Positions 43,707 to 64,000 of a stretch of DNA of 64,000 nucleotides are shown here, piece by piece. Both the position numbers and the translations under genes were made by a program. This stretch comes from Lachnospiraceae bacterium (GTDB lineage: Bacteria > Bacillota > Clostridia > Lachnospirales > Lachnospiraceae), in the NCBI GenBank assembly GCA_017455435.1, contig JAFTAU010000038.1, positions 2,284 to 66,283 on the forward strand, written 5' to 3'. The notes under the pieces are model-generated. The model made no database searches, was not told the origin of the DNA, and saw only the letters and a program-made list of their open reading frames with translations. Numbering within the stretch: the stretch's first letter is position 1; each line of letters starts with the position of its first letter.

Positions 43707-43735
43707 GCGGCTCCGGCCCCGGCGGCCGGAGCCGC
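43707..43735 (+). promoter_or_regulatory. Perfect 12-bp GC-rich hairpin after the liv binding-protein gene (intra-operon attenuator or RNA-stabilising stem)
   Basis: GCGGCTCCGGCC-CCGGC-GGCCGGAGCCGC with no T-run. A second AT-rich stem with a T-run follows at ~43757-43790. Confidence 0.55.
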
Positions 43736-49302: not shown

Positions 49303-50292
49303 ATGGATAATTATGGAGAAATTGTTATTTACCAGACTGAGGATGGTTTTTCAAAAATTGAAGTCAATTTAAAAAATGAAACAGTATGGCTGTCGATTGA
49401 TCAGATGGCTGAACTGTTTCAGCGGGATAGAAGTGTTATTGGAAAGCATGTACGTAATATATTTAAAGAGGGTGAACTGAAAAAAGATTCAGTATGGGCA
49501 AAAATTGCCTACACTGCCGCCGATGGAAAAATATATGACGTAGATTTTTATAATTTGGATGTTATTATTTCCGTGGGCTATAGGGTTAAATCCTTTCGTG
49601 GCACACAATTTCGAATTTGGGCAAATTCGGTACTTAGGGAATACATAATCAAGGGATTTACAATTGACGACGAGCGCCTGAAGGGAAATGCCGGAGGAAA
49701 TTATTGGAAGGAACTTCTTGATCGAATCCGTGATATCCGTTCATCGGACAAGGTGCTTTATCGTCAGGTGTTAGATTTATATGCAACAAGCGTGGATTAT
49801 AATCCGAAGAGCGAAGAATCCATTCAGTTTTTTAAAATTGTACAAAACAAGCTCCATTATGCTGCCCATGGACATACTGCGGCAGAAGTGATTTATGAAC
49901 GTGCTGATGCGGAAAAGCCATTTATGGGATTGACATCTTTTTCTGGCGAGCTGCCTGCTCTTAAAGATATCGGAGTTGCAAAAAACTACTTGAAAGAAGA
50001 TGAACTAAAGGTTTTAAACAATCTTGTTTCCGGCTATTTTGATTTAGCTGAAATATCTGCCATAGAGCATAAACCGATGTATATGAGTGACTACGTGACA
50101 CAGCTGGACTCAATTCTTACTTCGGGAAACAGAAAACTTCTTACCGATGCAGGAAGTATAAGCCATGATCAAGCCATGAAGAAGGCAAAGGATGAATACA
50201 GAAAATATCAGGAGATAACGCTGTCTCCTGTTGAAGAAGAGTATCTAAAGAGTATTAAAGAAGTGGAAAAAGAGGCCAAAAAGAAAAACTGA
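49303..50292 (+). CDS. rhuM: RhuM-family protein (virulence/defence-island-associated, function unknown)
   Basis: N-terminus IVIYQTEDG..K.EV.L..ETVWL...QMAELFQ.DR.VI.KH..NIFKEGEL, then YNLDVIISVGYRVKS.RGTQFRIWA. Visibly AT-rich compared with its neighbours. Confidence 0.85.
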   Translation: MDNYGEIVIYQTEDGFSKIEVNLKNETVWLSIDQMAELFQRDRSVIGKHVRNIFKEGELKKDSVWAKIAYTAADGKIYDVDFYNLDVIISVGYRVKSFRGTQFRIWANSVLREYIIKGFTIDDERLKGNAGGNYWKELLDRIRDIRSSDKVLYRQVLDLYATSVDYNPKSEESIQFFKIVQNKLHYAAHGHTAAEVIYERADAEKPFMGLTSFSGELPALKDIGVAKNYLKEDELKVLNNLVSGYFDLAEISAIEHKPMYMSDYVTQLDSILTSGNRKLLTDAGSISHDQAMKKAKDEYRKYQEITLSPVEEEYLKSIKEVEKEAKKKN

Positions 50293-50319
50293 AACACACG
50301 GGGACAGTCCCCGTGTGTT
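50290..50319 (+). repeat. Right 30-bp direct repeat / hairpin flanking the rhuM cassette
   Basis: TGAAACACACGGGGACAGTCCCCGTGTGTT. Its first three bases are the rhuM TGA stop. Confidence 0.85.
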
Positions 50320-50330
50320 ACACACGACAT

Positions 50331-50372
50331 AAAACAAGGCTGTGAGATTCAAAACTCACAGCCTTGATTTTA
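50331..50372. terminator. Bidirectional terminator hairpin between rhuM (+) and the disrupted ggt (-)
   Basis: Perfect 12-bp stem CAAGGCTGTGAG-ATTCAAAA-CTCACAGCCTTG, flanked by AAAA and ATTTTA. Confidence 0.7.
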
Positions 50373-50394: not shown

Positions 50395-52239
50395 TTAATA
50401 CGCCAGGGCTTTGCCGCTTCTTCTCGGGTCGGCGCCGCCCCTGACGGTGCCGTCGCCGTTGAGCGCTATGGCCTGGACGCCGCCGAAATAATTGTCATAG
50501 GCGGCCTTGTCAACGAGGGTATATCCCATATCTTCGAGAGCTTTCATGGCGCTTTCGCTCAGGGGATAAACCGAATCTTCGGTAGTCCTCTCGTAGTGCA
50601 GCTCTGTTTCGCTGTCCGCCCACACCCTGGTGGTATTGATGGCTTCCTGTACGTCCATATCAAAATCTATCATGCGCTCTATCACCTGGGCCACCACGGA
50701 GAATATTCTGGTGCCGCCCGGCGTTCCTACGGTGAGGAACGGCTCATTGTCGGGAGTCAGAACCACGGTGGGAGTGATGCAGGAAAGAGGACGGGCACCG
50801 GGCTTTGCGCAGTTTACGGACTCCGGATCCAGACTGAAATCGTACATTTCGTTATTGAGAATGAATCCGTATCCGGGGACGGCTATCTTGCTGCCGTAAA
50901 AATCGCCGATGGTCTGCGTGCAGGTGACCATATTTCCGTCCTTGTCAATGATTGAATATGAAGTGGTGGAGCCATGTTCAAAGGCTGCCGGGTCCGCCGC
51001 GGTGTACTTTCCGTTTCCGGCGTCAATGCCGTCAAATCTCTGCTTGGCGTATTCCTTGGAAGTCAGCCCGTCAAGGACGCTTTGCTCCACATTCTCGTAC
51101 ATATACTCGGCTCTGTCGGCGAAAGCGATCTTTGTAGCTTCCGCGATGGCGTGAATATATTCGGGGCTGTTTATCTCCATGGTCGCAAGGTCATAGTTTT
51201 CCAGAATATTGAGGATCTCAATGAGGTGCGTGCCGCCCGAGGATGAGGGCGGAAGAGAATAAACCTTGTAATCGCGGTAAGTGGAAGAGAGAGGCGTGCG
51301 GTGTTCGACTTTATATGAGGAAAAGTCTTCCTTTGTGATGTGCCCGCCGTAGCCGTTTACCGATCCCACTATCGCGTCCGCGATCTCGCCGCTGTAAAAG
51401 ACCTCCGGCCCCTGCTCGGCGATAAGTCTGTAAGTTTTTGCCAGGTCAGGATTTGTGATGACCTCGCCCGTTTCGTATGCCCATCCGTCGTTCAGATAAT
51501 ATTCTGAAAGCTCCTTCATCGCGGATATCTGGGTGTATTCCTCGTTGGAGGCTTCTTCCATCATGGGCATGCACAGATAGCCTTCCTCAGCGTACTTTAT
51601 TCCGTCCGCCATCAGCATTGCTCTGGTGAAATTGCCAGAGCCGTAACTGTTCAGAGCCTCTTCGAGCCCCGCGATCTCTCCGGGCACGGCCACGGCCAGC
51701 CCGCCGAGACGGTTCAGTCTGGAATAAGCTCCCGTCAGGGTAGCGCCCTCTTCCGTGGTATAGTACATGATGTTTCCGTCAGCGTCGAGCCACTGCCTCG
51801 CGTCGGTGGCGGCGGGCGCCGTTTCACGGAAGTCCAGCATAATTACCTCTCCCGTATCGGCCTTGTAGATGGTCATATAGCCGCCTCCGCCGATGCCTGA
51901 GGTGTAGGGCTCCACAACGCCGAGAGTGTACGAAACCGCGACAGCCGCGTCCACCGCGTTTCCGCCGGATTACAAAACCTCGAGGCCGGCCTTTGAAGCG
52001 TACCAGCTCGAAGATGCCACGGCCGCCTCCTTTCCGGTGGCGTCTCTGTCGGTCAGGATGACCTTCCCGTCCGAGTCATAGGGAACCCAGACGGCGTTTT
52101 CGTCTTCGGTTTCCTTTTCGCCCGTGCTTTCCGCCTCGGAAGTCGGGGCGTTTGTCGTCTCGTCGGAGTTTCCTCCGCAGCCGATGGCGGAGAACACCAT
52201 AGCCAGCGCCAAAAGCAAAGAAACAAATCTGATTTTCAT
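50395..52239 (-). pseudogene. ggt: Gamma-glutamyltransferase paralogue (lipoprotein) interrupted by one in-frame TAA
   Basis: Track ORFs 51970..52284 and 50395..51954 are in the same frame. Read-through translation gives ...ASKAGLEVL*SGGNAVDAAVAVSYTLGVVEP..., with the stop (51970-51972) aligned to the Gln of LDILQAGGNAIDAAVA in the intact paralogue. Lipobox SAIGC follows the ATG at 52239. Confidence 0.75.
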
Positions 52240-52516
52240 AATCATCATTCCTTTCAGTTTAATAATTCCTCTCTGTAAGAACAATTATTCCCTTCCATTA
52301 TATTTCACCGAAAATGAAAAAACAAATACAATCATTGTCAAAAAAATGCCAATCGCCACAACGAAAAAATCCGAAGTTTTTGTATGACAACACTTCAGTT
52401 TTTTAATGATTTAGCATAATGATATTCATTTTAAAATGTTGCAAACAAAAGGAATTGTATTGTATAATAATTAAACAATTCTATGTTCGTTTTTATGTGA
52501 AAATACAGGAGATAAA

Positions 52517-54412
52517 ATGAAAATAATAACCAGAATTCTCAGCTTGTTTCTCGTTCTTTCCATGCTTCTTTCCGCCGCTGCCTGCGGAGGCGGTGACGAA
52601 GGCGCCACCACGTCCGCTCAGTCGCAGGAATCCGAAAGCGCGGGTGAATCCACAGAGGTCGCTCCCGCCGTGGAAGGCGACGAATTCGGAAACGCCGCTG
52701 TCGGAAAAAACGGCGCGGTCTCCAGCTACAACGAGATTTCCTCTCAGATAGGTCTTGATATTCTTCAGGCGGGCGGAAACGCCATCGACGCGGCGGTCGC
52801 CACTGCTCTCGCGGTAGGCGTCGTAGAGCCTCACCACAGCGGCATCGGCGGTTCGGGCCTCATGACCATTTATCTCGCTGAAGAAGACAGATACACCACT
52901 ATCGAGTATCTCGAAAACATTCCCGGAAACGTAGAGTCGGACTACTACCTCAAAAACCGCAACATCGAGACTCCCAGAGCCGCCGGCGTGCCCGGACAGG
53001 TGGCGGGTCTCGCTATGGCCCTCGAAAAATACGGCACCATGAGCTGGCACGACATTCTCCAGCCCATCATAAAGCTCTGCCGTGAAGGCTTCCCGATTGA
53101 CGAGGTCGCTGCCGGCGCTATGGCGGACGGCTATGAGAAGTTCAGCAAAGAAGGAAAAGAATACCTCTTTGAGCTCTTTACCGACGACGGCTTCCCCTAT
53201 GCCGAGGGCGATATCTTCAAGAACGAAGACCTCGGGAACACATTTGAGACTCTTGCGGAAAAAGGCTGGCAGGATTTCTACACCGGCTCCATCGCCGAGA
53301 AAATCTCAGCGGATTTCAAGGCCAACGATGCAGCAATGTCCATGGAGGATCTGGCCAATTATTACGCCGCCGAGAGAGAACCCATCGTTACCAATTACTA
53401 CGGCTACGACGTGGTCACGGTTGCCAATCCCTCCGTCGGAGGAACGCTCCTCATCGGCGCGCTCAATATCATGGAGCAGCTCGGAATAAAAGACATCGAG
53501 CAGGGCACTGCCGACTACTGGAAGGTATTCAACGAATCCGTCCGTCTCGCCACGAACCCCGCATATACCTATTCGGGCGACCCGGCGTTTTACAACATGC
53601 CTTCCGAGACTCTCTGCTCAAAAGAATACGCCGCGGACAGAGCAAAGCTCTACAATCCCAAGGCCGCTCTTGACCCGCTTCCCGACGCGGACCTCGAGTA
53701 TTCCAAAAATGAAGTTCCTTCACTCACGGGAAAAGCCATCGCCGTCACTCCCACAAAGAACCCCCTTGTGTCCAATATTCCCGTCGTGGGCGAAACAGTC
53801 AGCGGCACTTCACAGCCCGACACCATAGACCAGGGCGGAAACACCACCCATATCGCAGTCATTGACGCGCAGGGCAATATCGTTTCCACCACAAACACAG
53901 TAGGCCTTTCATGGGGCTGCTACCACGCCACACCCGGCCTCGGCTTTATTTACAACACTCACCTCAACAACGTTTCGTGGACCACTGAATCCAGCCCGGA
54001 TTACTTTGCCGACGCAGGAAAGAGAGTACGTTCCACCATGTCGCCCACCATCGTTGTAAAGGACGGACAGCCCATCATGGCGGTCGGTTCTCCCGGCTCC
54101 ACGGTTATCCCGCCCGTTATCGCGAATATCATAAACAATGTTCTGCTTTATGATATGAACATTCAGCAGGCCATCAACGCTCCCAGAGCGCTCGTCATCG
54201 ACAGACCTTACGTTGATATGTCGGGAGAGCAGGGACGAATGGACAAAAAGACCGTCAGACTGCTCGAGGTATTCGGATATGTATTCAAAAATACCATTTC
54301 CGATTATGACGCCGTCTGCGGAGGAGTAGCCGCCATCACAATCGACAAGGAATCCGGTACGATAACGGCCGGAGGAGACCCCCGTCGCGATTACAAGGCC
54401 CTTGCCTATTAA
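52517..54412 (+). CDS. ggt: Gamma-glutamyltransferase-family protein (lipoprotein, intact)
   Basis: Lipobox SAAAC. Motif GGNAIDAAVA....GVVEPH.SGIGG, and an autoprocessing-site region GGNTTHIAVID..GN.VS.T.T. Confidence 0.9.
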   Translation: MKIITRILSLFLVLSMLLSAAACGGGDEGATTSAQSQESESAGESTEVAPAVEGDEFGNAAVGKNGAVSSYNEISSQIGLDILQAGGNAIDAAVATALAVGVVEPHHSGIGGSGLMTIYLAEEDRYTTIEYLENIPGNVESDYYLKNRNIETPRAAGVPGQVAGLAMALEKYGTMSWHDILQPIIKLCREGFPIDEVAAGAMADGYEKFSKEGKEYLFELFTDDGFPYAEGDIFKNEDLGNTFETLAEKGWQDFYTGSIAEKISADFKANDAAMSMEDLANYYAAEREPIVTNYYGYDVVTVANPSVGGTLLIGALNIMEQLGIKDIEQGTADYWKVFNESVRLATNPAYTYSGDPAFYNMPSETLCSKEYAADRAKLYNPKAALDPLPDADLEYSKNEVPSLTGKAIAVTPTKNPLVSNIPVVGETVSGTSQPDTIDQGGNTTHIAVIDAQGNIVSTTNTVGLSWGCYHATPGLGFIYNTHLNNVSWTTESSPDYFADAGKRVRSTMSPTIVVKDGQPIMAVGSPGSTVIPPVIANIINNVLLYDMNIQQAINAPRALVIDRPYVDMSGEQGRMDKKTVRLLEVFGYVFKNTISDYDAVCGGVAAITIDKESGTITAGGDPRRDYKALAY

Positions 54413-54460
54413 TTTAAAAAAATTTTTTTGATAATATTATTATCATCAGGAGGAAAGATT

Positions 54461-55093
54461 ATGAAAAAGCTTTTAGCAGTTCTTCTTGCTGCGATTATGG
54501 TTCTCGGAATGGCCGCTTGCGGCGATACGGCTGAAACCACCACCGCGGCTCCCGACACCCAGGCCACAGATGACACCACTAAGGCTGCGGACGACACCAC
54601 TGCCGAAGCCGCTCAGTACACGACAAAGATCGTTGCTCCGGCTGTCATCACCACTATCGGACAGGCTGACATCGACGTTGGAAAACAGGTTCTCAAAAAA
54701 GCCGGCGTTGAATTCACCGAAGACGACAAACTTGCTGCCGACGCGGTCGGCAACTACGGCACCATCTTTATGGTTATCGGAGCTTCCAAAAAAGGCCTTG
54801 GCGCTGCCGGCATCAGTGTTGAAGATGAAGTAGCCCGTGCAAACGCCGTTATCGACGCTGCAAAGGCTGCCGGAAAGCAGATTATCGCCATGCATCTCGG
54901 AGGTGAAGACCGTCGCGGCGGACAGTCCGATCAGATTATCGACGCGGTTATTGTAAAGGCTGACTTTGTCGTAGTAGCCGGCACCGGAAACGCCGACGGT
55001 CATTTCACTCAGACCCTGTCCGGCATCGGAATCCCGATCACCGTTGTTGACAACACCAAAGCGGCTGTTGACGTTATAGCTGCGCTTCTGTAA
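54461..55093 (+). CDS. Uncharacterised lipoprotein with a Thr/Ala/Asp-rich linker and an alpha/beta domain; candidate solute-binding partner of the downstream permease
   Basis: AGGAGGAAAG RBS and ATG at 54461, lipobox GMAAC, low-complexity linker ETTTAAPDTQATDDTTKAADDTTAEAA. No family recognised. Confidence 0.6.
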   Translation: MKKLLAVLLAAIMVLGMAACGDTAETTTAAPDTQATDDTTKAADDTTAEAAQYTTKIVAPAVITTIGQADIDVGKQVLKKAGVEFTEDDKLAADAVGNYGTIFMVIGASKKGLGAAGISVEDEVARANAVIDAAKAAGKQIIAMHLGGEDRRGGQSDQIIDAVIVKADFVVVAGTGNADGHFTQTLSGIGIPITVVDNTKAAVDVIAALL

Positions 55094-55107
55094 TTACCAC
55101 CGTACTG

Positions 55108-55148
55108 ACGGCTCCGGTGTTTAGCTATACCGGAGCCGTAGTTTGTTT
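55108..55148 (+). promoter_or_regulatory. Perfect 11-bp hairpin plus T-rich tail between the lipoprotein and permease genes (partial terminator or attenuator)
   Basis: ACGGCTCCGGT-10 nt-ACCGGAGCCGT followed by AGTTTGTTT. Same placement as the hairpin after the liv binding-protein gene. Confidence 0.55.
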
Positions 55149-55169
55149 AAAGAACAAGGAGGAACTGTT

Positions 55170-56570
55170 TTGGATCAGGAACTGATTATCTTATTGGTAA
55201 TGATAGGGACTTTCCTGCTCAGCAATTTTTTGCTCCATTTCCCCGTCAGTCTCGGTATGGCTCTTTCCGCCGTACTCGGCGCCGTTGTTTACGGCATTTG
55301 CGGCGGAGACATTTCTGAGCTCGGAAGACATCTGTTTGAAGGAACGTTTACATATTTGGACACCGTTCTGATCATCGCGATGGCAATGATCTTCATGACG
55401 TTTATCCAGGAGTCGGGCACAATGGGCGCTCTGAACAACGCCATAGTAACGCGTTTCTACAAAAAGCCCGTCATTATGCTTATCCTCTTGATGATTATCG
55501 TCATGTTCCCCGGTATGATTACCGGTTCGTCAACGGCGGGCGTTCTTGCCGCGGGTTCAATCGTCGCGCCTATTCTTATTCTGATAGGTGTTCCTAAGGA
55601 TAAGACCGGCGCGGTTATCGCGGTGGGAGCCATCCTCGGTATGGCGGCACCGCCCGTCAACATCCCCGCGCTGCTTATAGCGGGCGGCGTCGATATGCCT
55701 TTCTCGGGCTTTGACGTACCGCTGCTTCTCATCACGCTCATTCTCGGTATATTCACAGTGCTTTTTATCTGTATGAAGTATTGCCGGAATATCAATATCG
55801 AAGAATTAAAGCCCCATCTTGATTCTGAGACAGGAAAGAAATACGGCTTCAAAGTTTACATTCCCGTTATCGTTCTGGCGCTCATTCTGATCATCAGAAT
55901 GGTTCCCAGCATTCTTTCCATTTTTGGCGCGACCGGAGGCTTTGTAGACTGGTTCACGCAGTTCGCCAGCAAGATAGCGGCCATAGCGATGCCGCTCACC
56001 TTCCTTATCTGCGCGCTGCTTGCCATCATCCCCGGCTTCGGCAAAAAGTTCAACATTATCAAATCCTGCAAGAACGCGATCAACACCACTATTCCGGTTC
56101 TCGGAAAGCTGATGGGCGTTGGAATGTTCATTCAGATTCTTACTTTGACCGGAGCCAGAGGCTGGATCGTTCAGGCTTGCTTAAAGCTTGCCTCGCTCGG
56201 CGGAGCGCAGGAGACGTTTGCCATCGGCACCGTACTTCTGCTTCTCGCCATAGCCATTGTCTGCCCGGCGTTCGGCGCGGTTTCTTCTTACGGATCGGCG
56301 ACGGTTCTCGGCGTTCCTTTCCTTATCGTTCTGATGGACGTAAAGTTCCCGGCCTCGTCTGAGATAATAATGGCGTGCGCGCTTTCCACCATCGTCTGCT
56401 GCGGAGACCTTATGCCACCCACCGCCCTGTCCGGAAACTACGCGGCGGAGCTGGTAGGTGAAAAATACTCAAAGGTTCTGAAACACGTTGTGGTTCCCGT
56501 GGTCGTAAGCATAGTATTCTGCCTTGCCGTCCTGCTGCTGGCGGAACCGCTCAAATTCCTGGCGCGTTAA
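55170..56570 (+). CDS. Ion-transporter-superfamily permease resembling the TRAP large subunit DctM
   Basis: Probable TTG start at 55170, 8 nt after AAGGAGG. Polytopic ~466-aa protein. The segment GMITGSSTAGVLAAGSIVAPIL...G.....GAVIAVGAILGMAAPP parallels the DctM pattern (GS..A......G.I..P.M...G......G.I...G.LG...PPS). Confidence 0.55.
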   Translation: MDQELIILLVMIGTFLLSNFLLHFPVSLGMALSAVLGAVVYGICGGDISELGRHLFEGTFTYLDTVLIIAMAMIFMTFIQESGTMGALNNAIVTRFYKKPVIMLILLMIIVMFPGMITGSSTAGVLAAGSIVAPILILIGVPKDKTGAVIAVGAILGMAAPPVNIPALLIAGGVDMPFSGFDVPLLLITLILGIFTVLFICMKYCRNINIEELKPHLDSETGKKYGFKVYIPVIVLALILIIRMVPSILSIFGATGGFVDWFTQFASKIAAIAMPLTFLICALLAIIPGFGKKFNIIKSCKNAINTTIPVLGKLMGVGMFIQILTLTGARGWIVQACLKLASLGGAQETFAIGTVLLLLAIAIVCPAFGAVSSYGSATVLGVPFLIVLMDVKFPASSEIIMACALSTIVCCGDLMPPTALSGNYAAELVGEKYSKVLKHVVVPVVVSIVFCLAVLLLAEPLKFLAR

Positions 56571-56582
56571 GGAGGTAATGAC

Positions 56583-56747
56583 ATGATATTCGGAATCAGT
56601 ATTCTTACATGGATTTATCTTTTAATCATTGTTTTTTTACTTGTATTCATTATCTGGAATATGATTACGGAAAAAGACGTTCTGCGTCAGATCGACGCGG
56701 CCCTTGTCATCATTCCGCTGTTGCTTCGGCTGTTCCTGGTGAAGTAA
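56583..56747 (+). CDS. Unlisted 54-aa two-TM membrane peptide
   Basis: TAAGGAGG RBS 6 nt upstream of the ATG at 56583. Translation is MIFGISILTWIYLLIIVFLLVFIIWNMITEKDVLRQIDAALVIIPLLLRLFLVK, with TAA at 56745-56747. It is tightly packed between the permease and the next gene and is too short for the 60-aa ORF track. Confidence 0.6.
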   Translation: MIFGISILTWIYLLIIVFLLVFIIWNMITEKDVLRQIDAALVIIPLLLRLFLVK

Positions 56748-56760
56748 GGAGGAAAAGGAC

Positions 56761-58179
56761 ATGACATTGGAAGTTAAGACAAAAACCCCCGTTAATTATA
56801 TTACAGCAGCAGTTCTTCTGATACTGTGCTGCGTTATGTTTTTCGTCCTGAAGGGTCAGTTTGAAACCATGAGCGAGCCGGAGCTTGTCTACTACGGAAA
56901 AAACTCCAGCGTAAAGGCTATTCATTGGCTTTCGGAGTGGAATCCCCGCCTGAAGGAAACCCGCGGAGGCGCCGGAGATACGCTCGTTTATGAGCTTCGC
57001 GGCGAAGAAGAGGGCGATACCATAATCATTTTCGGCGGAGTTCACGCTAACGAGCCCTCCGGCTCCGTAGCCGCCATATACATGGTTGAGAATCTTCATC
57101 CAAAGGCCGGCACCGTCTATATCCTCACGCATACCAACGCCGCGGGATATACCTGCACGGACCCCCAGGAAGCTTCTCCCATGTTCTATACCGTTGATAC
57201 CGGAGCCGGCGAAAGACAGTTCCGCTTTGGCTCGCGCGTATCAAACCCCATCTATCAGTGGCCGGATCCCGATATCTATGTTCACACCTCCGGACAAAAG
57301 CTGGCCGGCTCAGAGACCAGAAATCTGAACCGCTGCTACCCCGGCATAGAAGACGGCACCATCACGGAGCAGGTAGCCTACGCCCTTACTGAAATGGTAA
57401 AGGATCTGGACGCGGCCGTCACCATCGACCTGCACGAGGCCTCTCCCGAATACAAGACTATCAACACCACGGTTTTCCATTCGAGAGCCAATTCCATCAC
57501 CTCGGCCCGCGACTGGTACATCCCCGAAGACCTCGAGGACGCGGCTCACATGGGAGCGGAAGTCTCGCCTGAGAATTTCCGCGGCCTGTCGCACATCGAG
57601 CTCGGAACATGGACCGACACGCTGGCCATGCTGATGGAGACGTCCAATCCCTCTCAGGGACGCGAACACGGAAAGACCGGAACTGACCTTGTTGTAAACG
57701 GAATAGACAAGTTCTATCTGCGCAACAACCAGTCCGTGGGAATTCAGGACAAGAGATACGGCATCGAGGTCGATACCGGAGAGTTTGTCGATGAAGACAC
57801 CTTCGTAGCCGCGAATGATTCCTCGGCGGAAGAGATGACAGCTCTCGGCGCGCGTCCTCTTTCCATGCGCGTCGCCAGACACGTAATAGCGACGCTGGCT
57901 TATGCTCAGAGCTATACCGATTCTATCGGAACCGCACTTGAAGACGCTGCCGCGGCAGCCACCGAAGAAGACAGGCTCGCGATTTACGAAGAGGTCGGAA
58001 TCGGAAAATCCTCTCTTGACGGCAGTATTATCGCCGAAAGAAGAACCGGTATAATCGACCTGGGAGAACTGCCTTCGTACAGTGATCTCTGCGCCAATCT
58101 TTACAAATACCTCGCGCCTTCGGACGAGGTCGAGACCAGCGCGGACGTATTCGCGGGTACTTCTTCACTGATTAAATAA
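56761..58179 (+). CDS. Succinylglutamate desuccinylase/aspartoacylase (AstE/AspA, M14-like zinc hydrolase) family protein, N-terminally membrane-anchored
   Basis: TM anchor, then zinc-site motif IIIFGGVHANEPSG (H-x-x-E). 472 aa. TAAGGAGG RBS. Confidence 0.65.
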   Translation: MTLEVKTKTPVNYITAAVLLILCCVMFFVLKGQFETMSEPELVYYGKNSSVKAIHWLSEWNPRLKETRGGAGDTLVYELRGEEEGDTIIIFGGVHANEPSGSVAAIYMVENLHPKAGTVYILTHTNAAGYTCTDPQEASPMFYTVDTGAGERQFRFGSRVSNPIYQWPDPDIYVHTSGQKLAGSETRNLNRCYPGIEDGTITEQVAYALTEMVKDLDAAVTIDLHEASPEYKTINTTVFHSRANSITSARDWYIPEDLEDAAHMGAEVSPENFRGLSHIELGTWTDTLAMLMETSNPSQGREHGKTGTDLVVNGIDKFYLRNNQSVGIQDKRYGIEVDTGEFVDEDTFVAANDSSAEEMTALGARPLSMRVARHVIATLAYAQSYTDSIGTALEDAAAAATEEDRLAIYEEVGIGKSSLDGSIIAERRTGIIDLGELPSYSDLCANLYKYLAPSDEVETSADVFAGTSSLIK

Positions 58180-58191
58180 GGTGAATTATCT

Positions 58192-59121
58192 ATGAAACGT
58201 TTTACATTAATCATCATGACCGCCGCGCTCCTTTTTGCGGGGTGCGGCTCTTCGGGGGAGAGCACAGCGGGCGGGCAGTCCGCCGCGGAGCCTACGGATT
58301 TTTCGTACGCGCCTGTTACGGTTACCACGGGAACTACGGAATCCGCCGCCACCGATGAGGTCAGTCTCGAGGATCTGGCTATCGACCCGCCGTACTCCTT
58401 TAATCCCGACGAAATGCTGCCCTCGGACTTCGGCGATTATTTCAAGACGCAGTATAACAGCGTTACGAGCACATATAAGCTCCTCGCCGGCGACAGGTAC
58501 GAAAGTGAAGTCACAATGATTAAGAGCCCGGTCGACGGTCCATCGGTTTATGTGATTGCCGGAATACACGGAGACGAGGAAGCCGCGTGGCAGGCCGGAA
58601 AGCTTCTCAAAAAGATTTCCATAAAAGCCGGAACTCTCTATATCATTGCTCCCGCCAACAAATACGGCGCGGTATCACTTTCGCGCCTGATAGATTCAAA
58701 AGACCCTAACAGAGTCTGGCCGGGCGATAAAAACGGTAACGGAGCGGAAAAGGTTGCGGCCTCCATCTTCGCGGACGTAAAAGAAAAATCCCCGGATTTT
58801 GTTTTCGACCTGCATGAGGCGAGGATTATATCCGACGACAGAGACTTCCTCGGAAGTTCGCTGATCTACACGACGCTCGACGTATTCCCTGACGATTTGT
58901 TTATGGACATCATCGACGACGCTCAAAACGGTATTATCTGCAACCACAAACTAAACTCCTACTCGCCGGGACCTGCGGGCAGCGTAAATCGCACGATCAC
59001 CGAAAAGCTGGGAATCCCCACCTTTACCGTGGAAACCTTCAGAGGATATCAGATGGAGGACCGTATTCACGACCAGCTCGATATAGTAAACTGGGTACTG
59101 AAATTTTATGGCCTGGAATAA
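58192..59121 (+). CDS. AstE/AspA (M14-like zinc hydrolase) family lipoprotein
   Basis: Lipobox LFAGC. Motif VYVIAGIHGDEEAAW (H-x-x-E) and a downstream DLHE motif. 309 aa. Confidence 0.65.
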   Translation: MKRFTLIIMTAALLFAGCGSSGESTAGGQSAAEPTDFSYAPVTVTTGTTESAATDEVSLEDLAIDPPYSFNPDEMLPSDFGDYFKTQYNSVTSTYKLLAGDRYESEVTMIKSPVDGPSVYVIAGIHGDEEAAWQAGKLLKKISIKAGTLYIIAPANKYGAVSLSRLIDSKDPNRVWPGDKNGNGAEKVAASIFADVKEKSPDFVFDLHEARIISDDRDFLGSSLIYTTLDVFPDDLFMDIIDDAQNGIICNHKLNSYSPGPAGSVNRTITEKLGIPTFTVETFRGYQMEDRIHDQLDIVNWVLKFYGLE

Positions 59122-59124
59122 ACA

Positions 59125-60261
59125 GTGAAATATTTCATCATTATCAGCCTGATAATCATCATCGCGTGCCTGGCTGCCGAGGCAAAACTCGCGGCCGGGC
59201 ATCGCCGCGCTATAAAGCATGTTATTCACGTAAACGGAACCCGGGGCAAATCCGCGGTTTCGCGTCTGATTGCCGCTGGCTGCGCCGCCGGCGGTCTCAG
59301 AACATACTGCAAAACCACCGGCACCTTGCCGATGACTATTGACACAAACGGAAACGAAACCGAAATAAAACGTATCGGCAGAGCCAATATTTCCGAACAG
59401 ATAAAGATACTGAAAAAAGCGGCCGCGGACGGAGCCGAGGTTCTCGTGATAGAGTGTATGGCCGTAGACCCGGAATTGCAGCGCGTCTGCGAGAGAAAAA
59501 TCCTCCGCTCGGATATCGGCGTTATCACAAACGTACGAATAGACCACGTCGCGGAGATGGGAGAAACAATTCCCGAGGTATGCGAGGCTCTCTGCGAAAC
59601 TATTCCCGAAAACGGCATAGTTTTCACCGCGGACGAAAGGAGCTTTGACGCCATCAGAGAAAACGCCGGACCGCGGGGTAGCGAGGCGGTTCTCGTAAAT
59701 GAAACGCCGGAGGATACCCGGGAGTTCCTTTTCCCCGAAAATATCGCTCTGGCGCTGCGCGTCTGCGAATATCTCGGAATAGAGCGCCGGACTGCACTCG
59801 AAGGAATGAAAAAAGTCATTGCCGACCCCTATGAGGCAAAGAGGTATACGCTCCCGGGCGGGGCGGTTTTTGTCAACGCCATGTCGGCAAACGACCCGGA
59901 ATCCACGGGCATACTTCTTTCAAAATTCATAAACAAAAAATCTCCGGACGGGCGGCTGATTATCATTCAGAACAACAGGGCTGACAGAGCCTACCGCATA
60001 AAGCTGATGGCCGGGTTTGCAGCCGGAGCGGGAGCGGATGAGATATGGCAGCTCGGCTCCTATAGCGGGGCCGCCCGCAGGATTTTTGAAAAATCCGGTA
60101 TAAAAACAGAAAAGTTCAGACGCGCCGCGGAGCTGCCCCTCGCAAGGGTACGGTCGGGAGACCTGGTATTCGCCATCGGTAATATTGCCGATGAGGGAAT
60201 AAAGCTCATGAATCTGGTAGAGGGAAAGGAGGAAAGCCGAAAATGTACGGAGAAGTCATAA
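59125..60261 (+). CDS. pgsB: Poly-gamma-glutamate synthase, Mur-ligase-like subunit PgsB/CapB
   Basis: GTG start. N-terminal TM segment, then IHVNGTRGKSAV.RLI and ...NI.EQ.K......GA...V.ECMAV.PE.Q, closely paralleling Bacillus CapB (VNINGIRGKSTVTRL...NIGEQ...ECMAVNPDYQ). Confidence 0.85.
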   Translation: MKYFIIISLIIIIACLAAEAKLAAGHRRAIKHVIHVNGTRGKSAVSRLIAAGCAAGGLRTYCKTTGTLPMTIDTNGNETEIKRIGRANISEQIKILKKAAADGAEVLVIECMAVDPELQRVCERKILRSDIGVITNVRIDHVAEMGETIPEVCEALCETIPENGIVFTADERSFDAIRENAGPRGSEAVLVNETPEDTREFLFPENIALALRVCEYLGIERRTALEGMKKVIADPYEAKRYTLPGGAVFVNAMSANDPESTGILLSKFINKKSPDGRLIIIQNNRADRAYRIKLMAGFAAGAGADEIWQLGSYSGAARRIFEKSGIKTEKFRRAAELPLARVRSGDLVFAIGNIADEGIKLMNLVEGKEESRKCTEKS

Positions 60262-60671
60262 TAACAGGTATCATTGTCAGTATCGTTTTTTCGTATTTCA
60301 CGTCGCTTTCTCCTGCCGGGCTCATTGTACCCGGGTATATTGCGCTGAATATAGGCTCCCCGATCAAGATACTTTTGACCTTTGCCGTGGCTTTTATCAC
60401 GTTGGGCATATACAAGATTATTTCACGCTTTACCATTCTGTACGGGCAGAGACGTTTTGCCCTGTTGGTAATCATTTCAATCTGCGTAAGCTGGCTTGTG
60501 ACGCTGCTTCCATTGCCTGTCGCCAATGTCAGCGTGATTGGATACCTGATTCCCGGGATTATCGCAAAGGACTGCGAGAGGCAGGGAATACTCAAAACCG
60601 TCCTGTCGCTGGCGGCAGCGGCCGGAATTACTGTTCTGATTTGCCTGCTGCTGGGAGCCAAATTACTCTGA
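60243..60671 (+). CDS. pgsC: Poly-gamma-glutamate synthesis membrane protein PgsC/CapC
   Basis: 142-aa, 4-TM protein with motifs G.IVPGYIAL and GY.IPG.IA, as in CapC. AAGGAGG RBS. Overlaps the pgsB 3' end. Confidence 0.85.
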   Translation: MYGEVIITGIIVSIVFSYFTSLSPAGLIVPGYIALNIGSPIKILLTFAVAFITLGIYKIISRFTILYGQRRFALLVIISICVSWLVTLLPLPVANVSVIGYLIPGIIAKDCERQGILKTVLSLAAAAGITVLICLLLGAKLL

Positions 60672-61741
60672 TGGTAATCAAAAAACGGGAAAAAAGAATC
60701 CGGGTAATGCTGCTTTTGATGCTGCTCGTTACGGCGTCGGGGCTTTTGCTCGCTTATTTTACCTCGTCCGTGACTGAAAAGCCGCTGTATAATACGGCGG
60801 TAAACGCCGCCCGAAAAATGAGCGCCTGCATGGAAGAAATCGCGGCCGAAAAAGCGCGGCGCGGGATAGAAATTCCGCCGGAGGATATTTTTTCTACCGG
60901 TCTGATAGGAGAAGATTATAACGACATCACCACCACGAGCGGAGACCTCGCGGCAAAGCGCACGAGCGCGAATCCCGATATGGCGTCCATGATGGTCTTT
61001 ATGCTGGATGAAGCCGGCATAAAGGCCGGAGACACTGTCGGCTGCAATTTCTCCGGGTCGTTCCCGGCACTTAATATTGCCACTGTCTGCGCCTGCGATG
61101 CGATGGGAGTCAGGGTCGTTTATATCTGCGCCTGCGGCGCTTCTACATGGGGAGCAAACAATCCCGGTCTTTCATTTCCGGAAATGGCGGACGTTTTGTA
61201 CAAAAAAAACCTGATATCCGCTCCGCCGGTTCTGGTAACCCCGGGCGGAGGCAAGGACACCGGCAGCGGCCTTGATCCGGAGCTGTTTTCGGAGGTCTGG
61301 GAGAGGGCGGAGGCTCTCGGCTATCCCACGCTCACGGAAGAGGATTTTGAAAAAAACGTGCTTGCCAGAAAGGCGGTGCTGGACGCGTATGATATTGACT
61401 GTTTTGTCGCGGTGGGAGGGCACCTGGCGTCTCTCGGACGCGGAGATGTGGTCTATCTGCTGGGTCAGGGCATAATTCGAGAGGAAGTAGGTTTTACAAA
61501 TGAAAAAAGCGGACTGGTCGAAAGGTACTTAAATGGAGGCACTCCCACCATCCTTCTTCTCAATATCAAAAAGCTTGCGGCGGACTACGGACTGCCCTTT
61601 GATCCGGTAAAACAGGCAGAGGTCGGAACAGCCGGATTGTACTATGAAAAGACGTATAACAAGGCGGTTCTGATAACAGCCCCGGCGGCCTTTTTGTGCC
61701 TGCTTATTTTATTTAAAAAACCGCATAAAAAGAGCGAATAA
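60671..61741 (+). CDS. Third poly-gamma-glutamate system component, not PgsA-like; bitopic protein with a large extracytoplasmic domain
   Basis: ATG at 60671 overlaps the pgsC stop (translational coupling). TM segments at the N- and C-termini. Assigned by position only. It may correspond to the TIGRFAM 'poly-gamma-glutamate system protein' class found where PgsA is absent. Confidence 0.45.
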   Translation: MVIKKREKRIRVMLLLMLLVTASGLLLAYFTSSVTEKPLYNTAVNAARKMSACMEEIAAEKARRGIEIPPEDIFSTGLIGEDYNDITTTSGDLAAKRTSANPDMASMMVFMLDEAGIKAGDTVGCNFSGSFPALNIATVCACDAMGVRVVYICACGASTWGANNPGLSFPEMADVLYKKNLISAPPVLVTPGGGKDTGSGLDPELFSEVWERAEALGYPTLTEEDFEKNVLARKAVLDAYDIDCFVAVGGHLASLGRGDVVYLLGQGIIREEVGFTNEKSGLVERYLNGGTPTILLLNIKKLAADYGLPFDPVKQAEVGTAGLYYEKTYNKAVLITAPAAFLCLLILFKKPHKKSE

Positions 61742-61860: not shown

Positions 61861-64000
61861 ATGGCAGAACAAGAAAAGAATAAGAAAAAGAAAGGCTGGT
61901 TATTCCTGCTTCTCGGAATTATTCTGGCGGCAGGCGTTGCCACTGTCCTTGCTTTGACTCTGGGAAAAAACAATCCCGGTCCCGGCGGCCCGGGTGATGA
62001 CCTTCAGAGGTCAGCAGAGGAAATTGCTCTTGCCGAAAAGCTCGCGGCCGAGGGCAGCGACACCATCTCTATAGATCACGACATAGAGATAGTCGGTACG
62101 CTCGTCGTTTTCGGGGACAAGACCCTTACCGGAAACGGACGTATTATCTCAAAAGGCTCCGGAGAGTACGTCATCACTCTCGGCGAGGGGGCTGTGCTAA
62201 ACCTCGACGGCCCTTCTGTAGAGAGCGAAGAAGGCGGTGCCACGAACGGCATCTACGTTTCGGAGACCGCGTCATTTAATCTGCTTTCAGGCAGTGTCAG
62301 AAATCTGGTCGGACACGGCGTCCGCAATCTCGGCGCTGCCCGTATTCTGGGCGGAACGATTTCAGAAGTCGGTACAAACTGGCTCATGGTCGATTCCGGT
62401 TCTACAGTAGAGATGAAGGCCGGCACATTCTCTGATGCCGGAGAGGCCGGAGTTCTGATTGGCTCCAGCGCCACGTTCACATACGGCGGAGAAGCTGTTA
62501 TGGACGGCTCCGTAGACAACCTGGTCTACAACCTCGGAACCTTTACCGCCGATGGCGGAAAGTTCCTCGGAAATCTTGATTATGCACTTTACAACAACGG
62601 CATCATGGACATCAAAAACGTCGTCTTCGAAGAGTCCGAGATTCTCGGTCCGATTCACAACGGAGAGGACGGAGTCATGACCGTTTCGTCCGTCACCATG
62701 AAGGACAGCGAGACGGACTTTATTTTCAACGAAGGAGACCTGACCCTCACCGACGTAACATTCGGCAACTGCAACAACCAGGCCATTGAGTGCGCCTACG
62801 GCAATATCAGGATGCAAAACATCACTGCCGGAAAGATAGGCGGGAACTTCCTTCTCAGCCGCAAATCAAAGGCTGTCATCGAGAATCTTACCATAGAGAC
62901 CGTTGGCTCGGATATCGTTTACAACCGCGCCAGCGACCTTCAGTTAAAGACTCTCAGATGCGGCGATGTGGGCGGCAGCGCCTTCTTTAACGATTTCCTT
63001 ACTTCCAAATCCACTGCCGGAGCCGGTGACGTCACTATTGAGGACTTTGAAATAGGTCACGTCATGGTAAACGGCATCCGCTCAAATGGCGGAAAAGTTC
63101 TCTTAAAGGACGGCGTCTTTGATATCTGCGACGGACACGGCGCTTACGCCAAGGACGGCGAGTTTACATGCGACAGCGTCACCTTCAAGGGCTCGGCGGT
63201 AGGCAGAGCCGTCGTTCTGGTAGGCTACAACACCAACACCGAAACAGTGGCCGTCTTCCGCAACACCACCATTACCGGCGGCGCGAGAGGACTCCAAAAT
63301 CACGCTATAGTCACGTGGGAGTCCGGAACCATCTACGGCAACAAATCCTCCGGAAAAATCAATATCGGAGCCGGCGTCAAAAACTCCGGACAGTTCACCA
63401 TGCTGGGCGGAACCATCCGCGACAACCGCGCAAAATCCAGCGGCGGCGGCATTTACAATGAAGGAACTCTCATTGTAAAGGGCGGCACTATCAAAAACAA
63501 TTCATCCGAACAGTCCGGCGGCGGTATCAGAAACTCCGTCAAGGGTACGGTCAAAGTCTCCGGCGGATTGATTTACAACAACACCGCGAAGAGCTACGGC
63601 GGCGGCATTGCCAGCGCCGGAAGGCTCACCTTCTCCGGCGGCACGGTTTCTTACAATTCGTGCGCCAAGAGCGGCGGCGGTATCGCTATCACGGGCGACA
63701 CCACCGGAAAACAGAAGGGCGCGGGCGTCGGATATCTCACCGGCGGTACCGTAAAGAACAACAAATCCACCGCTTCGGGCGGCGGCGTATATCTCGGCTC
63801 ATCCGCTCAGTACGGCTCGCTGGAAGGCGTCAAGATTAAGAATAACAAGACCTCCGACAATACGTCCGGCGGCGGCGTCTCGTCCCTCAGCAAGCTCTAT
63901 ATCTACAAGGGTACCGTAATCACCGGCAACAAGTCCGGCACCTACGGCGGCGGTGTCTATAACAGCATCACCAAAGACGGCACAAAGCACGGCACTATGT
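61861..64000 (+). CDS. 5' part (>713 aa) of a large membrane-anchored right-handed beta-helix surface protein with Pmp-like GGG(I/V) repeats; continues beyond the window
   Basis: Not in the ORF track because no stop lies inside the window. I translated it by hand: ATG at 61861 after AGGAG, then MAEQEKNKKKKGWLFLLLGIILAAGVATVLAL (signal anchor), open to base 64000. At least seven S/Y-GGG-I/V motifs at ~25-aa spacing lie between ~63430 and 63960. Confidence 0.7.
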   Translation, partial: MAEQEKNKKKKGWLFLLLGIILAAGVATVLALTLGKNNPGPGGPGDDLQRSAEEIALAEKLAAEGSDTISIDHDIEIVGTLVVFGDKTLTGNGRIISKGSGEYVITLGEGAVLNLDGPSVESEEGGATNGIYVSETASFNLLSGSVRNLVGHGVRNLGAARILGGTISEVGTNWLMVDSGSTVEMKAGTFSDAGEAGVLIGSSATFTYGGEAVMDGSVDNLVYNLGTFTADGGKFLGNLDYALYNNGIMDIKNVVFEESEILGPIHNGEDGVMTVSSVTMKDSETDFIFNEGDLTLTDVTFGNCNNQAIECAYGNIRMQNITAGKIGGNFLLSRKSKAVIENLTIETVGSDIVYNRASDLQLKTLRCGDVGGSAFFNDFLTSKSTAGAGDVTIEDFEIGHVMVNGIRSNGGKVLLKDGVFDICDGHGAYAKDGEFTCDSVTFKGSAVGRAVVLVGYNTNTETVAVFRNTTITGGARGLQNHAIVTWESGTIYGNKSSGKINIGAGVKNSGQFTMLGGTIRDNRAKSSGGGIYNEGTLIVKGGTIKNNSSEQSGGGIRNSVKGTVKVSGGLIYNNTAKSYGGGIASAGRLTFSGGTVSYNSCAKSGGGIAITGDTTGKQKGAGVGYLTGGTVKNNKSTASGGGVYLGSSAQYGSLEGVKIKNNKTSDNTSGGGVSSLSKLYIYKGTVITGNKSGTYGGGVYNSITKDGTKHGTM

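Follow-up and report, generated by a model that had tools for sequence, protein, structure and literature searches.

We analysed a 64,000-nucleotide stretch of DNA from a Lachnospiraceae bacterium (contig JAFTAU010000038.1; hereafter the window), in which three adjacent genes at 54461-56747 encode a lipoprotein, a DctM-like permease and a 54-aa membrane micro-protein. An earlier note, made from the sequence alone, had described them as an atypical three-part transporter, and all three co-directional open reading frames (ORFs) are present as claimed. The 210-aa lipoprotein (54461-55093, + strand) belongs to the Pfam family DUF6305 (PF19823, 135.9 bits). Its gene is followed by an intercistronic stem-loop of 13 pairs and then AGTTTGTTTA (55108-55139, + strand), a feature identified by its folding energy relative to shuffled sequences. 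The 466-aa permease (55170-56570, + strand) matches PF06808, the DctM family, with 34 bits (cut-off 23.8) and CitMHS more weakly, and the micro-protein (56583-56747, + strand) is a conserved ORF preceded by a Shine-Dalgarno (SD) sequence and without a Pfam or NCBIfam match. We found that this trio is a conserved unit tied to one type of poly-gamma-glutamate (PGA) system. With a probability of about 0.5, we propose that it is the transport core of a conserved module for PGA turnover and salvage, an importer of glutamate or gamma-glutamyl compounds with DUF6305 as its receptor and the micro-protein as its small subunit.

The trio lies in a run of genes at 52517-61741 that are all on the + strand and are joined by short or overlapping junctions. 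This operon opens with the gene for a GGT/CapD-like gamma-glutamyltransferase (GGT), a 631-aa exported lipoprotein (52517-54412; PF01019, 436 bits; TIGR00066, 390 bits against a cut-off of 358). The micro-protein gene is followed by two genes for AstE/AspA-like zinc hydrolases. One is a membrane-anchored, outward-facing, M14-related protein of 472 aa (56761-58179; PF24827, 34 bits), in whose sequence we read an N-terminal transmembrane segment and the motifs HxxE...H...E; the other is a 309-aa lipoprotein that also occurs in many related loci (58192-59121; PF24827, 48 bits). Three overlapping genes (59125-61741) come next and encode PgsB, the ligase subunit of PGA synthase (59125-60261; TIGR04012, 319.5 bits, cut-off 222.7), PgsC, its membrane subunit (60243-60671; TIGR04011, 115.5 bits, cut-off 96), and TIGR04332, a 'poly-gamma-glutamate system protein' (60641-61741; 322 bits, cut-off 100) that is the third gene of the synthase operon and stands at the place of PgsA. 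With all three genes overlapping and above cut-off, the locus qualifies as a TIGR04332-type PGA system. Every soluble product faces outward, namely the GGT lipoprotein, the DUF6305 lipoprotein and the two AstE/AspA-like hydrolases, one membrane-anchored and one a lipoprotein. The gamma-glutamyl context that had been suggested for the trio is thus borne out by its GGT and PgsB-PgsC-TIGR04332 neighbours.

Linkage between the lipoprotein and the permease is seen from either gene, and the trio proved to be a conserved unit. Starting from at least 557 stretches that match DUF6305 in a collection with one genome per species, we chose 80 loci; the permease gene is downstream of DUF6305 in all but two of them, and both exceptions end at a contig edge. 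In the 84 loci with both genes (the 80-locus set together with three contigs of distant DUF6305 proteins), the permease gene mostly follows DUF6305 directly, with one hydrolase gene between the two in 10 loci, and the gap is shorter than 25 nt in 20 loci, 25-39 nt in 7 and 40-260 nt in 44. For the converse comparison we picked a further 80 metagenome loci solely by their permease. DUF6305 immediately precedes 61 of the 66 permease copies with at least 800 nt of upstream sequence; of the remaining five, three are second copies that follow GGT, with DUF6305 elsewhere in the locus.

The gene neighbourhood is conserved beyond this pair. An AstE/AspA-like hydrolase gene follows the micro-protein gene in almost every locus, contig permitting, and nearly all related loci have a GGT gene close to DUF6305. 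The three contigs of distant DUF6305 proteins (one from Bipolaricaulis, one from a metagenome) have an identical order: one or two copies of GGT, DUF6305, sometimes an AstE-like gene, the DctM-like permease, a 47-48-aa ORF and an AstE-like protein of ~380 aa, often with PgsB, CapC and a third gene next. Carriers are found among Clostridia, Fusobacterium nucleatum, Treponema, Leptospira, Thermotoga, Bipolaricaulota and Varibaculum, with Clostridium tetanomorphum DSM 4474 and Fusibacter paucivorans DSM 12116 as two of them, and DUF6305, permease, micro-protein and hydrolase are co-inherited in hundreds of species. The three-part transporter therefore stands as a unit but not as a free-standing one, given that an AstE/AspA-like hydrolase, GGT and the PgsB/PgsC/TIGR04332 synthase accompany it. 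Searchable literature yielded no description of the trio, including under the combination of pgsB, pgsC and a tripartite ATP-independent periplasmic (TRAP) transporter; matches to 'PgsW' were unrelated. Many Clostridia loci (L008, L009, L020, L023, L026, L030, L098-L114 and others) also carry, upstream of DUF6305 and directly after GGT, a second set of permease, micro-protein and membrane hydrolase genes without a DUF6305 gene of its own.

The module and PGA synthesis occur together. PgsB was found in 15 of 15 module-bearing genomes, even where it is not adjacent (in spirochaetes it is far off), with 12 scores above cut-off and three fragmented; only B. subtilis among 14 control genomes scored above cut-off. 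DUF6305 had no match in these 14 controls, B. subtilis included. Within one evenly drawn sample of 301 genomes from the same class (Clostridia), the three genomes that encode the permease are also the only three that encode TIGR04332. F. nucleatum carries the entire module (L048), and its production of PGA has been shown experimentally (Candela 2009, cited in PMC3815933). Because PgsB is present in all 15 genomes and the permease and TIGR04332 share the same three, the module belongs to the PgsA-less PgsB-PgsC-TIGR04332 type of PGA system, as in F. nucleatum. Scavenging of glutathione alone, an idea prompted by the GGT of Treponema and Fusobacterium, was rejected as the main role since PgsB is in every module-bearing genome tested. 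GGT-family enzymes take off gamma-glutamyl units, and AstE/AspA-type enzymes hydrolyse N-acyl-Glu/Asp bonds, a type to which the gamma-glutamyl-glutamate bond chemically belongs. As the enzymes of the module are all exported or membrane-anchored outward, extracellular breakdown followed by re-uptake is the simplest reading of the PGA context.

The lipoprotein had been taken for a member of an unrecognised family; a hidden Markov model (HMM) search instead placed it in DUF6305, with a match (cut-off 25 bits) that covers positions 2-152 of the 154 in the profile. This family is without known function, and we found no mention of it in searchable literature. About 100 relatives were retrieved from 5.8 billion proteins, all with a signal peptide or lipobox and annotated as DUF6305 or hypothetical. 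The window protein begins with a signal peptide and a lipobox (...GMAAC). Both of the features previously described for the mature protein are real: a Thr/Ala/Asp-rich linker of ~35 aa, which is disordered in the AlphaFold2 model (predicted local distance difference test (pLDDT) ~50), and a compact alpha/beta domain, for which pLDDT exceeds 90 over residues 59-210. The latter is modelled as a single three-layer alpha/beta domain of ~150 aa with six strands, Rossmann/flavodoxin-like. Residues invariant in the subfamily of the window protein (G67, Q68, G107, S109, K111, G112-G114, G117, A134, H145, G148, R151, R152, G153, G176 and D179) all lie in the loops following strands 1, 3, 4 and 5. In doubly wound folds, such post-strand loops make one site at the C-terminal edge of the sheet; because the invariant residues cluster there, the conserved Q68, S109, K111, H145, R151, R152 and D179 would form a single pocket in the model.

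Comparisons of the fold gave little. A Foldseek search of the PDB returned no convincing relative (best template modelling (TM) scores 0.3-0.46, to ThiM, the FtsZ N-domain, flavodoxin and SGNH hydrolases), and HMM searches against PDB and Pfam gave nothing significant (for example, dihydropteroate synthase loops at E = 0.13). Binding proteins are absent from the top 50 Foldseek PDB matches and from the HMM matches. Given this absence and the single-domain model, DUF6305 does not have the two-lobed architecture of solute-binding proteins, with its cleft between lobes. An enzymatic fold, the outcome it had named as contrary to its proposal, did not emerge either: the weak neighbours include SGNH-type acylhydrolases, and, with no convincing solved relative, the comparison by itself favours neither binding nor catalysis.

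Several DUF6305 proteins have other domain arrangements. A 588-aa lipoprotein (L087:4230-5996) consists of three tandem DUF6305 domains with the full motif set in each, two-domain forms exist as well (P0003-P0005), and forms from Bipolaricaulota have an extra N-terminal beta-rich domain with a weak match to 3-keto-disaccharide hydrolases. In one Treponema metagenome-assembled genome, a single ORF (L057:1693-3429) joins DUF6305 to the permease after the second permease helix, with the first one and a half helices gone and a topology that is still consistent. We rejected this ORF as evidence of contact because it lies on a 3.8-kb contig and is probably a deletion or assembly artefact.

DUF6305 also occurs in a second setting. 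Ten of the 301 genomes carry it above cut-off, and seven of these have a different subfamily and lack the permease, so the matching of the permease profile to only three of the ten is not a problem of sensitivity. All seven of these loci encode SBP_bac_5, DUF6305, a sensor histidine kinase and a response regulator, and in most of them genes for a DUF3798 binding protein and an ABC transporter come next (L088-L094; for example, L092:5571-11242). The kinase has a polytopic N-terminal membrane domain of ~220 aa and no large outer domain, and the SBP_bac_5-DUF6305-kinase operon may be a three-component sensing system. Across both subfamilies only G67, Q68, S109, G117, E123 and A134 are invariant; K111, H145, R151, R152 and D179 are replaced in the kinase-linked proteins. 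We infer that DUF6305 is a general extracytoplasmic partner of polytopic membrane proteins, and its pocket appears, from these alignments, to vary with the system as in binding-protein families. Such context dependence argues against a fixed Ser-His-Asp catalytic triad, and the three tandem domains with complete motifs likewise point to binding. The pattern of the pocket therefore favours binding or docking over catalysis.

For the permease, the longest ORF starts at 55143. We set the start at TTG 55170, because AGGAGG at 55158-55163 lies six bases before it and the homologues begin there in an alignment of 30. All 31 aligned homologues have PF06808 as their top Pfam match (best E = 6e-17); best E-values were weaker for CitMHS (30 of 31 homologues), DcuC (11 of 31) and NhaC (11 of 31). 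In Foldseek, the AlphaFold2 model (pLDDT 89.6) matched the TRAP M subunits of IseQM, FnSiaQM, PpSiaQM and HiSiaQM with TM scores of 0.6-0.67. The top structural match is a model of MleN (NhaC family), with TRAP M close behind and only a small separation between folds; DASS carboxylate carriers score about like TRAP M, and AbgT proteins lower. Taken together, Pfam and Foldseek place DctM closest, and with a tightly linked lipoprotein family, a branch that works independently of binding proteins (DcuC or YfcC), which had been put forward as the finding that would count against a receptor, does not describe this permease. Over its full length, the family profile can be aligned with the M portion of IseQM, the isethionate TRAP transporter that is its best PDB sequence match, though at an E-value of only 0.08. 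This alignment pairs the signature loops of the permease (MITGSSTA, APPVNIP and GDLMPPTAL) with hairpin tips and broken helices of IseQM, as MITGSSTA/ISGSGPAT, APPVNIP/IPPSNP and LMPPTAL/VTPPVGV (SGS/PPS/PPV).

The permease is nevertheless no ordinary DctM. It scored 17 bits against TIGR02123 (cut-off 321), and 32-34 bits against PF06808 compared with 308 bits for the canonical DctM that the genome encodes on another contig. A search of 1.84 billion proteins with the family profile gave only 818 representatives (E<=1e-3), so the family does not merge with canonical DctM. The absence of DctP, DctQ, TAXI and TctC genes stated in the earlier note holds in Pfam and NCBIfam scans of the locus; DctP and DctQ (PF04290) are without a match in the whole genome (93.6% complete), whereas the negative for TAXI covers the operon only. 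The permease thus represents a family of its own within the ion-transporter superfamily, distantly related to TRAP-M and outside the TRAP system as defined. From its modelled fold and the hairpin-tip motifs common to carboxylate carriers, it would work as an ion-coupled elevator-type carboxylate carrier. Compared with each of the 30 aligned homologues, the window permease carries two extra segments of ~10-20 residues, one around residues 255-275 and one around 340-352; model confidence dips at both. The canonical DctM match (G000 contig C84:104668-106017) lies inside a 682-aa ORF that is possibly a fused TAXI-type TRAP permease unrelated to the trio.

The micro-protein is clearly a gene in its own right, judging by its conservation across 72 distinct sequences and its fixed place after the permease. 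The ribosome-binding site reported upstream of it is present (GGAGG). The ORF was called in 77 of 85 loci (window included), most of the other eight ending at a contig edge; it is preceded by an SD sequence, is 47-54 aa long apart from two shorter calls of 37-38 aa, and starts 0-30 nt past the permease stop or overlaps it, in some cases by 4 nt. A short polar loop joins its transmembrane helix to a conserved hydrophobic helix at the C-terminus (...AALVIIPLLLRLFLVK), the shorter of the two, and the sequences have the consensus MxxxIYLxIxAxxLxLxxWNLFxEKxxxxQxxAALVxIPLxLRLLxIK, in which Y6, Q30, P39, L42, R43 and K48 are 90-100% conserved. We propose that it is a small subunit of the permease. 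PgsE/CapE, considered as an identity for it, was rejected, as there is no family match and the gene is coupled to the permease even where pgsBC is distant.

Expression of the trio is probably uneven. The earlier note had described a perfect 11-bp hairpin with a T-rich tail between the lipoprotein and permease genes; the stem holds (11 Watson-Crick pairs plus a G-U and an A-U), but the tail is only moderately T-rich. The stem-loop folds at -30.6 kcal/mol (z = -4.3), and none of 200 shuffles folded as well. Of the 43 distinct gaps of 40-260 nt between DUF6305 and the permease, 34 contain a strong stem (uninterrupted, at least 8 bp, z <= -2; median z = -4.4), and these stems are unrelated in sequence. 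Spirochaete loci with gaps of 10-12 nt had no stem. Only ~30 nt separate the stem from the permease start at 55170, which leaves no room for a promoter, so the permease must be transcribed through the stem. The stem-loop is likely a leaky terminator or 3'-end stabiliser that favours expression of the lipoprotein over the permease, and its recurrence fits the earlier suggestion that the outer component is over-expressed. Hairpins placed behind the gene for the binding protein are a known device in such operons, such as the repetitive extragenic palindromic (REP) elements of malEFG and hisJQMP. The window contains a second example, as had been noted: a 12-bp hairpin (43707-43735) in the liv operon, after the Peripla_BP_6 gene and before the BPD_transp_2 permease gene. 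The liv and DUF6305 hairpins (43709-43733 and 55110-55137) have a common 8-nt stem core, GGCTCCGG...CCGGAGCC, of which no copy would be expected by chance in the window and which has only two copies in the 1.73-Mb assembly, both between an outer-protein gene and a permease gene.

Other genes flank the operon. Upstream, on the - strand and transcribed divergently, is a further GGT gene of the lipoprotein type (50395-52284; G_glu_transpept, 471 bits on 50395-51954). A lone in-frame TAA at 51972-51970 interrupts it (...LEVL*SGGNAVDAAV) where the neighbouring GGT paralogue has Gln; stop aside, its N-terminal lipoprotein part and 519-aa catalytic part are intact, and it is probably a pseudogene or the result of a sequencing error. 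Between this gene and a sigma-70 gene lies a RhuM-family gene (49303-50292, + strand; 350 bits), with two strong bidirectional terminator-like hairpins downstream of it at 50293-50366. The PGA operon is followed by a gene that runs past the end of the window (61861-63999, + strand) and encodes an exported protein of more than 713 aa with an N-terminal anchor, many Gly/Asn/Thr-rich repeats and a weak match to the polymorphic-outer-membrane-protein repeat, possibly a beta-helix surface protein.

The trio resembles several known systems without belonging to them. Like TRAP transporters (DctPQM, SiaPQM, IseQM; TCDB 2.A.56), it combines a DctM-type elevator fold and matching hairpin-tip motifs with an adjacently encoded small membrane partner, a gene for an extracytoplasmic protein that comes first and is followed by a stem-loop, and a likely carboxylate substrate. 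It differs in having a 150-aa single Rossmann-like domain instead of the two-lobed DctP/TAXI receptor, a micro-protein of 47-54 aa and about two helices instead of the four-helix DctQ, and a permease whose profile misses canonical DctM. The trio thus resembles TRAP functionally but is not a member of the family. TctABC likewise joins a secondary carrier to a small membrane subunit and an extracytoplasmic partner, and no trio protein or homologue has a Pfam match to TctA, TctB or TctC (Bug). As in small-subunit carriers, the micro-protein is translationally coupled to its carrier; here it has no database match. The hairpins recall the malEFG/hisJQMP REP elements in following a binding-protein gene and setting differential expression; unlike those, which are repeated elements, the stem core of the window hairpins occurs only twice in the genome. 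Bacillus subtilis pgsBCAE/pgdS/ggt shares PgsB, PgsC and a GGT/CapD-type enzyme acting on PGA with this locus, and has PgsA and PgsE where TIGR04332 is found here and PgdS (NlpC/P60) where AstE/AspA-like enzymes are found here; Bacillus PGA loci have no counterpart of the DUF6305-permease-micro-protein trio. The F. nucleatum-type cluster of pgsB, pgsC and a third gene shares both PgsB and PgsC and the same whole module.

We suggest the following scheme. GGT would trim gamma-glutamyl units from the amino end of the polymer and AstE-like enzymes would cut the N-acyl-glutamate type of bond at its carboxyl end, together freeing extracellular glutamate or short gamma-glutamyl peptides. Tethered by its flexible lipid-anchored linker and present in excess owing to the stem-loop after its gene, the DUF6305 domain could then catch the anionic product in its Lys/His/Arg-Arg/Asp pocket and pass it to the permease. 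The permease and micro-protein would import it on a cation gradient, with the micro-protein as a scaffold-like small subunit in the role that DctQ has in TRAP systems. That DUF6305 binds and delivers a ligand is suggested by the gene linkage, the conserved cationic pocket, the tandem-domain variants and the kinase-linked subfamily.

Several observations weigh against this scheme. DUF6305 is a single domain rather than a two-lobed receptor, and a catalytic triad of S109, H145 and D179 is conceivable. Since some loci have a second permease set with no DUF6305 of its own, several permeases may share the protein or do without it. The genes for DUF6305 and the permease are not adjacent in Bipolaricaulota and Thermotogota, where a hydrolase gene lies between them, and the membrane-anchored hydrolase, whose linkage to the permease is at least as strong as that of DUF6305, could be the true partner. 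The perfect co-occurrence with the synthase would also fit the making or holding of polymer, and the substrate and coupling ion of the permease are guesses from context. Of the new binding-protein-dependent architecture proposed earlier, the conserved unit and its distinctness from TRAP are supported; the outer protein is modelled as one Rossmann-like domain and not as a two-lobed binding fold. To our knowledge, TRAP and the tripartite tricarboxylate transporters (TTT) are the only established families of binding-protein-dependent secondary transporters. Whether the trio is a third class beside them, with a single-Rossmann receptor, and DUF6305 a family of receptors for either a carrier or an intramembrane-type sensor kinase, we regard as possible, though tentative.

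Other explanations would assign DUF6305 a different part. It might be a docking or adaptor protein that joins the large extracytoplasmic protein encoded upstream to the polytopic protein encoded downstream, pairing GGT with the permease here and SBP_bac_5 with the sensor kinase in the other subfamily, so that the product of GGT is channelled or sensed without free diffusion. The parallel gene orders, GGT-DUF6305-permease here and at many loci and SBP_bac_5-DUF6305-kinase in seven of seven, are as such a protein would have them; its partner kinase has no large outer domain; and the core of G67, Q68, S109, G117, E123 and A134 could be a common surface for protein contact or scaffolding. However, GGT lies upstream or downstream depending on the locus while the adjacency of DUF6305 and permease is fixed, the conserved charged pocket and Gly-rich loops resemble a small-ligand site, and three tandem domains and a hairpin-driven surplus suit a receptor better than a 1:1 adaptor. 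We consider the adaptor role unlikely.

An improbable alternative is that DUF6305 is itself an extracytoplasmic gamma-glutamyl enzyme, either a hydrolase or transferase using S109, H145 and D179 or an epimerase, and that the permease is a plain carrier helped only by the micro-protein. No significant match in sequence or structure connects DUF6305 with any enzyme family, and even the invariant Ser, His and Asp, which do occupy the loops that follow strands 3, 4 and 5 in a flavodoxin-like fold, are not all kept throughout: the kinase-linked subfamily loses the His, the Asp and both Arg while retaining the fold and Gly-rich loop. Nor is the Ser of the GQS motif that follows strand 1 conserved; the window protein lacks it. 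The weak Foldseek neighbours (SGNH-type acylhydrolases, ThiM and FtsZ-like nucleotide binders) and second permease copies that function without their own DUF6305 would suit an enzyme, but the locus already encodes three or four hydrolases, and triplicated catalytic domains on a single lipoprotein would be unusual. At least as improbable is a module for producing or retaining PGA, in which DUF6305 binds the polyanionic polymer on the cell surface and so anchors the capsule non-covalently, and the permease supplies glutamate for synthesis or exports a small anion linked to synthesis. Perfect co-occurrence with a PgsA-less TIGR04332-type synthase would be expected of it, as would a cationic pocket, multi-domain variants, a long flexible stalk and the high expression implied by the hairpin. 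Yet the polymer cannot pass an elevator-type carrier, DUF6305 is tied to the permease and not to pgsBC (often >10 kb away or on other contigs), and the operon's three or four outward gamma-glutamyl or N-acyl-glutamate hydrolases indicate breakdown.

If the trio is indeed such an importer, a third class of transporter with a minimal receptor and a two-helix subunit would widen the design space of elevator carriers and give a function to a Pfam domain found in at least 557 stretches in a collection with one genome per species. The kinase-linked DUF6305 proteins hint in addition at a new signal-sensing accessory. For PGA, our results mean that the TIGR04332-type system is more than a three-gene synthase, having a fixed outward hydrolase and uptake module attached to it in carriers that include gut Clostridia, F. 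nucleatum and spirochaetes. Such a module implies active turnover of the polymer, which might, for instance, be a store of glutamate, a buffer or a capsule under remodelling; this bears on both capsule biology and PGA biotechnology.

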